This document shows, piece by piece, positions 12,281-12,374 of a stretch of 64,000 bases of DNA. The notes under the pieces are model-generated. The model saw only the letters and a list, made by a program, of their open reading frames with translations. It searched no databases and was not told the origin of the DNA. A program made the position numbers and the translations under genes. The stretch lies in the IMG/VR virus record IMGVR_UViG_3300020281_001713. The stretch is one strand, 5' to 3'. How positions within the stretch are numbered: position 1 is the stretch's first letter; the number at the start of each line of letters is the position of its first letter. The DNA comes from a virus.

Positions 12281-12374
12281 GGTCCTGTAGTTTAATGGTA
12301 AAACACCCGGCTTATACTCGGCATAGTCTCCAGATTAGAGAGCGATGCAGGTTCGAATCCTGCCAGGACTACCA
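12281..12374 (+). tRNA. tRNA-Ile(TAT) with an unusually long extra arm
   Basis: GGTCCTG/CAGGACT acceptor, CCGG-CTTATAC-TCGG, about 24-nt variable region, GCAGG-TTCGAAT-CCTGC, ACCA end. Confidence 0.8.

Follow-up and report, generated by a model that had tools for sequence, protein, structure and literature searches.

Described UAU tRNAs and the gene in this phage

Isoleucine tRNAs with a UAU anticodon are known in Mycoplasma mobile, whose tRNA-Ile2(UAU) reads AUA without lysidine and is TilS-independent, and in some tilS-bearing bacteria (Taniguchi et al. 2013, PMC3575796). E. coli IleRS does not charge tRNA-Ile(UAU) efficiently. Its Trp905 stacks on base 34 and is conserved in tilS-bearing species, whereas W905R, or the natural Arg865 of M. 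mobile, confers UAU recognition. Some tilS-bearing bacteria with a Trp-type IleRS nevertheless carry a tRNA-Ile(TAT) gene that "might be a poor substrate" (PMC3575796). Long-arm tRNAs with a UAU anticodon are also known, but these derive from Leu or Ser/Sec-like tRNAs: the nematode nev-tRNA-Ile(UAU) is charged only with Leu (PMC3333845), and the (8/4) allo-tRNA(UAU), UAU being a leading anticodon among allo-tRNAs, is of the Ser type (PMC5389517). In bacteria, Leu, Ser and Tyr tRNAs (class II) have a helical arm inserted between positions 45 and 46 of a normal L-shaped core. Outside tRNAs, hairpins that copy a cognate anticodon arm and follow identity rules are bound by synthetases in mRNAs, as in the E. 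coli thrS operator, where they regulate translation of the synthetase's own mRNA (reviewed in PMC9976931).

Here we analyzed a 64,000-nt stretch of viral DNA (the window), which lies on a 335-kb contig of 35.8% G+C carrying ten tRNAs. The contig encodes proteins that match phage tail, baseplate and virion families, together with QueD, ThyX, a DNA ligase, UvdE and chaperone genes, and we read it as a large marine phage that was binned into a 2.36-Mb MAG. The rest of the bin has TilS and a 1107-aa IleRS of a different type. The host of the phage was not identified, and three near-consensus sigma-70 promoters around the tRNA array do not narrow it down. A megablast search of the region and 19.6 kb of flank against cultured phages gave no close relative, although the ClpA/ClpB-like ATPase of the phage (53558-55804) has more than 100 relatives at 77-89% identity in marine metagenomes, including Tara, so this phage lineage or this gene is abundant in the ocean.

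ARAGORN identified six tRNAs in the window, five of which form an array on the plus strand at 11949-12374: Trp(CCA) at 11949-12022, Tyr(GUA) at 12028-12112, Pro(UGG) at 12118-12194, Cys(GCA) at 12199-12273 and Ile(UAU) at 12281-12374. The tRNA-Tyr is missed by the Rfam tRNA model at the gathering score and matches only the tRNA-Sec model, weakly, at 30.7 bits. A tRNA-Arg(ACG) at 10623-10699 lies inside a 287-codon ORF (10545-11408) whose product matches a phage glycosyltransferase family (phrog_1962, residues 58-286). The tRNA(UAU) gene is 94 nt long, with a 7-bp acceptor stem (G1.U72), discriminator A73 at 12371 and an encoded CCA at 12372-12374. Rfam RF00005 matches 12281-12371 at 60.5 bits (E 1e-12; gathering score 29), with a 21-nt insertion in the variable region and one non-standard pair at the top of the anticodon stem. 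The 4-bp D-stem has the loop AATGGTA and the T-arm is standard. The gene has the features of an elongator tRNA: a cloverleaf with 7/4/5/5-bp stems, a T-loop of the TTCRAAT type and GG in the D-loop. The true anticodon arm (12306-12322) has a stem at 12306-12310/12318-12322 with a C27.C43 mismatch at the top and the loop CTTATAC at 12311-12317, providing U33, the anticodon TAT (12313-12315), A37 and C38.

The 24-nt variable region (12323-12346) consists of a linker ATA, an outer G12326-C12343 pair with a bulged G12342, a hairpin at 12327-12341, and then GAT (46-48), in which U48 at 12346 pairs with A15 at 12295. The hairpin has the stem TCTC (12327-12330) and GAGA (12338-12341) and the loop CAGATTA (12331-12337), with GAT at 12333-12335, A instead of U at the "33" place and U at the "37" place. 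The first-pass annotation had described this gene as a tRNA-Ile(UAU) with a long extra arm and a GAU-centered 7-nt loop unlikely to decode, and this observation is confirmed with every coordinate correct.

The array is preceded by a sigma-70-like promoter (11771-11799), a 21-codon leader ORF at 11824-11889 (MMNTIQIISYIWCPTYGRGLS), and a G+C hairpin followed by a T run (11921-11949) that ends at the first tRNA. The leader holds four ATA codons, which the first-pass annotation had noted in support of the Ile(UAU) call; all four of its Ile codons are ATA, and it also contains TAT, TGG, TGC, CCA and TAC. Nine of the 21 codons are read by the five downstream tRNAs (binomial p 4e-4, at a rough by-eye estimate of about 12% for these codons). 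Homologous leaders ending in G-R-G-L/M-S about 60 nt before the first tRNA stand before related arrays in four phage loci (designated L030, L042, L074 and L094), and their codon content follows the tRNA content of each array. In all, 19 of 21 Ile codons in the five leaders are ATA (p 4e-6), which supports the view that the UAU tRNA is used for AUA on ribosomes. The leader is a separate finding and, with its terminator-like hairpin, looks like attenuation control of a tRNA operon.

Distribution, structure and specificity of the arm

The design is not a one-off. A sensitive blastn search identified tRNA(UAU) genes of the same length in Lactobacillus phages LpeD, Lpa804, ENFP1 and 3-521 and in Acinetobacter phage qsb1. 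A pattern fixing only D-loop, anticodon-loop and T-loop bases and requiring a long variable region matched at least 120 viral contigs with C38, 39 more with A38, and 33 loci among 185,579 species genomes. A second blastn query found 43 cultured Vibrio phages (Thalassavirus and phage henriette). Phage Thalassa, inspected by eye, has a 93-nt tRNA-Ile(tat) with the arm AGCAA-CAGATAA-TTGGCT next to a normal tRNA-Ile(gat). Some phage tRNA-Ile(GAU) genes, namely that of Thalassa (L246:304-379) and five others of the loci, have C instead of U at position 33 (loop CCGATAA). In cellular genomes, the arm-bearing gene is either solitary among ordinary genes such as an ABC transporter, an ECF sigma factor, a cupin and a TetR regulator, or it sits in arrays of 18-25 tRNAs, in Pyrinomonadaceae and Streptomyces tamarix. 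A Kiloniellaceae genome (L157) has two copies 1.4 kb apart (4826-4914 and 6349-6439), both with the arm loop CCGATAA and one with T at position 38. HNH endonuclease genes lie next to the tRNA in three cultured phages but are not a general neighbor, as 50 of the loci have a solitary tRNA. Homologous 100-101-nt tRNA-like genes with very long variable regions, labeled inconsistently by ARAGORN (Asp-atc, Stop-tta), co-occur with the arm-bearing tRNA in related marine phages (G000:C57:7045-7144, outside the window; L043:4676-4776; L094:143-242).

We parsed and aligned 122 distinct sequences. On the cloverleaf-plus-arm structure, 95.0% of cells pair against 67.2% in shuffles, with a covariation score of 0.729 against 0.198, and sliding the partners by one to three columns gives at most 0.167. 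The stems are 99% paired across the 122 copies. RNAalifold, given no structure, predicts the same cloverleaf, the arm hairpin and a 4-bp anticodon stem, whereas the minimum-free-energy fold of the single RNA did not give the cloverleaf (z = -0.27) and was uninformative. The three inner arm pairs are paired in about 99% of sequences, and both sides have changed in 72 and 24 sequences at two of those pairs, so the feature is far beyond chance. The tertiary 15-48 pair is A-U in 89 and G-C in 33 copies, with no exception. The RNA therefore folds as a normal L with the arm at the class II position. The top pair of the anticodon stem (27-43; 12306/12322 in the window, columns 28/44 of the alignment) is G.U or a mismatch, often C.C, in 111 of 117 family members and Watson-Crick in 6, against 641 of 837 (77%) in other tRNAs from the same loci, so that this stem effectively has 4 bp, for an unknown purpose.

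The arm is a copy of the anticodon arm of tRNA-Ile(GAU). The first-pass annotation had named lack of conservation of the GAU loop among the outcomes that would overturn its reading, but GAU is kept in 119 of 122 copies. The loop heptamer is CAGATTA in 69 and CAGATAA in 28 copies, and by position it reads Y (121), A (112), G (122), A (122), U (119), N, A (109), with U at the "33" place only once. The anticodon loops of tRNA-Ile(GAU) genes in the same loci are TTGATAA or CTGATAA. The pair third from the loop (12328-12340 in the window), equivalent to 29-41, is C-G in 118 of 122 copies (97%), while its neighbor varies freely. In the same data, C29-G41 occurs in 71% of 28 tRNA-Ile(GAU) genes and 8% of 752 other tRNAs.

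The E. coli isoleucine determinants include G34/L34, A35, U36, t6A37, C29-G41, C4-G69, U12-A23 and A73 (PMC9976931). A38 is a further determinant. The arm carries five of the six anticodon-arm determinants, while the real anticodon has U34-A35-U36 and thus lacks the required G34 or lysidine-34. The window tRNA itself has A73, C4-G69, U12-A23 and C29-G41, which occur in 119, 67, 110 and 58 of 122 copies, respectively. For t6A37 and A38 the evidence does not point either way: A37 follows U36 but its modification was not examined, and position 38 is C in the window, whereas the arm loop has A at the equivalent place in 109 of 122 copies.

The arm was found only with the UAU anticodon. A scan for the same arm joined to CAU, GAU or AAU anticodons gave five hits, none of which is a tRNA. 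In a 344-kb viral contig (L070) and in other loci (L029, L033, L101, L133 and L150), tRNAs for Glu, Thr, Lys, Met, Gln, Ile(GAU), Gly, Pro, Asn and Cys also carry class-II-like extra arms, but those end in GNRA or UUCG tetraloops, and only the UAU tRNA has the 7-nt GAU loop. With the same flanking motif, long variable regions outnumber short ones by at least 159 to 23, that is, at least 120 to 3 when position 38 is C and 39 to 20 when it is A (Fisher p 1e-8). The arm is close to obligatory where the real loop has lost A38.

The meaning of AUA, and TilS and IleRS in carriers

Since long-arm UAU tRNAs that insert Leu or are of the Ser type exist, recoding was tested by aligning the ClpA-like protein of the phage with 150 mutually distant representatives of 39-59% identity. 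The 17 AUA positions fall in columns averaging 56% I, 18% V and 12% L. A BLOSUM-based likelihood puts Ile first, with V at -3.2, L at -7.4 and M at -10.4 nats and Ser not among the four best-fitting residues, and the same method recovers Ile, Leu, Val, Met and Ser for their own codons. As host tRNA-Ile2 may also read AUA, this shows what AUA means in the phage and not directly what this tRNA carries; charging with isoleucine was not assayed. AUA makes up 41% of Ile codons on the phage contig, against 30% in the rest of the bin.

The body of the tRNA is that of class I, with a 4-bp D-stem in 116 of 122 copies, a short D-loop and a 7/5 acceptor/T branch, not the 8/4 or 9/3 branch of allo-tRNAs. 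It does not fit the class II pattern of a long arm together with a 3-bp D-stem, a class II D-loop and a Leu, Ser or Tyr anticodon. The arm has a conserved 7-nt loop and a bulged purine, unlike the 3-4-nt loops that prevail in the Leu, Ser and Tyr arms of the same loci; the automatic hairpin caller behind that comparison prefers small loops on ties and was used for those arms only, being unreliable for the UAU family. In a 1-nearest-neighbor comparison of the body, anticodon excluded, against about 860 other tRNAs, the nearest isotypes were Arg, Lys, Trp and CAU tRNAs, never Leu, Ser or Tyr, and the test could not place the family with tRNA-Ile either. It shows only that the body is not class II.

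All five cellular carriers examined keep TilS above the curated cut-off, and four keep the R-C-W motif with the Trp equivalent to E. coli W905, while the fifth, Marinobacter, reads R-S-L, which may be a frameshift. The M. mobile condition, absence of tilS with Arg or Lys at the W905 position, is thus not fulfilled. The carriers have not adapted their IleRS, and the tRNA coexists with the lysidine route. The UAU tRNAs of Taniguchi et al. share the anticodon, A37 and A73 but are not described with a long arm (the word "variable" does not occur in the main text), and their solution is a changed IleRS, with Arg in place of Trp905; whether the tRNA-Ile(TAT) genes of Cyanothece and Ferrimonas carry the arm was not examined. 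Full-text searches of the literature found no paper on the GAU arm, and public annotations list these genes simply as "tRNA-Ile" of 91-94 nt. To our knowledge, the C-G match to C29-G41, the 15-48 covariation, the link between C38 and the arm, the codon-column test, the TilS and Trp905 check in carriers and the tetraloop contrast are new here.

Possible roles of the GAU arm

We are highly confident that this is a functional, conserved, AUA-reading tRNA-Ile family found mostly in phages, and hold with moderate confidence that the arm acts through IleRS. In our reading, the gene encodes a working elongator tRNA that reads AUA with an unedited UAU anticodon. Most bacterial IleRS enzymes read G34 or lysidine-34 and accept U34 poorly. 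We therefore propose that the arm hands IleRS the anticodon-arm identity set that the real anticodon arm lacks (U34, and usually C38), which would let one phage tRNA be charged with isoleucine in hosts whose IleRS is not adapted to UAU, without needing TilS. In this view, replacing U33 by A keeps the mimic from acting as a decoding loop. The gene, its fold, the conservation and specificity of the arm and the meaning of AUA as Ile in this phage rest on the data presented here, whereas charging by IleRS and any part of the arm in it are inferred, as no experiment exists on charging, expression or modification. Synthetases do bind anticodon-arm mimics outside tRNAs (PMC9976931), but here the mimic lies inside a tRNA, and binding is untested.

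The weak point is geometry. Class I synthetases such as IleRS hold the inner face of the L with the variable region facing solvent, and the tip of a 5-bp arm lies far from the anticodon pocket, so the arm cannot simply replace the anticodon in the known binding mode. The "37" place of the mimic is U in 78 of 122 copies and so cannot carry the t6A37 determinant, and C4-G69 and C29-G41 of the real stems are kept in only about half of the copies. Lactobacillus hosts are reported to have a UAU-tolerant IleRS (PMC3575796), yet two of their phages keep a perfect arm. Two ways out are conceivable, both by inference: a first docking on the arm that lowers Km, or an exchange in which the GAU arm stacks on the D-stem in place of the UAU arm, for which the weak 27-43 pair could be a hinge, although it could equally tune decoding. 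With two interchangeable arms, IleRS would see a GAU "anticodon" during charging and the ribosome UAU during decoding, a conformational switch separating identity from decoding and a portable way to read AUA without TilS or an adapted IleRS. The data allow this, but we consider it unlikely.

It is possible, although less likely than a role through IleRS, that the arm of a real AUA-reading tRNA-Ile serves another partner, such as a modification enzyme that must act on the U34/A37 loop, the ribosome, where it would suppress AUG misreading by U34, or a phage or host factor such as a tRNA-targeting nuclease, which the arm would block or decoy. The sequence-level conservation of the loop fits recognition by any specific protein, and the geometric objection does not apply to a partner that binds the arm alone. 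The 27-43 pair points to tuning of the hinge or of decoding (4-bp anticodon stems are discussed in PMC13092985), and as an unmodified UAU tRNA misreads AUG on E. coli ribosomes (PMC3575796), a fidelity device would be useful. Many phage tRNAs carry extra arms without an anticodon mimic, so arms as such may have a general role. However, none of these partners explains why the loop is exactly GAU with A at the "38" place and C-G at the 29-41-equivalent place, which together make up the IleRS set, or why the arm goes only with UAU, and we know of no Ile-specific anticodon nuclease.

Recoding and excision are, even taken together, very unlikely. The long arm and A73 are also features of bacterial tRNA-Leu, and LeuRS and SerRS ignore anticodons, but the AUA columns, the class I body and the 7-nt loop argue against a tRNA that inserts Leu or Ser. 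That the arm is cut out after guiding a modification rests on analogy only, with the intron-dependent pseudouridylation of eukaryotic tRNA-Ile(UAU) (PMC9602550). No bacterial machinery is known for splicing about 18 nt out of a variable loop, and the flanks of the arm take part in the covarying 15-48 pair, which fits a mature five-armed tRNA. The loop as an intramolecular "codon" (A-U-N) for the UAU anticodon was rejected because the invariant base is the G before A-U, the third base is U in 78 and A in only 36 copies, and the distance within the L is too large. Pairing of GAUU with AAUC of the T-loop is not conserved, since the fourth base varies, and T-box induction of ileS was rejected because the family is common in proteobacterial phages and genomes.

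The interpretation in the first-pass annotation is thus partly supported. Of its three suggestions, a synthetase-recognition aid fits best, whereas a nuclease decoy and an excised insert have no support but are not excluded. It had called UAU tRNAs rare in bacteria, but they are not rare in phages, and the TilS-independent route it proposed is true of the tRNA itself but is an addition and not a replacement in the carriers, which keep TilS.

AUA is the one sense codon for which bacteria need a dedicated essential enzyme (TilS) or a specially adapted IleRS. A tRNA that carries its own IleRS identity module would be a third solution, widespread in phages and working across host phyla, and cultured systems exist in Vibrio Thalassavirus phages, Lactobacillus phages LpeD and Lpa804, Acinetobacter phage qsb1, and isolates of Microbulbifer, Marinobacter and Pseudoxanthomonas. 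It would also be the first case of identity elements moved to a mimic arm inside a tRNA, which bears on tRNA identity rules, on the engineering of orthogonal or anticodon-independent tRNAs, and on how phages keep translation going in foreign or tRNA-depleted hosts.
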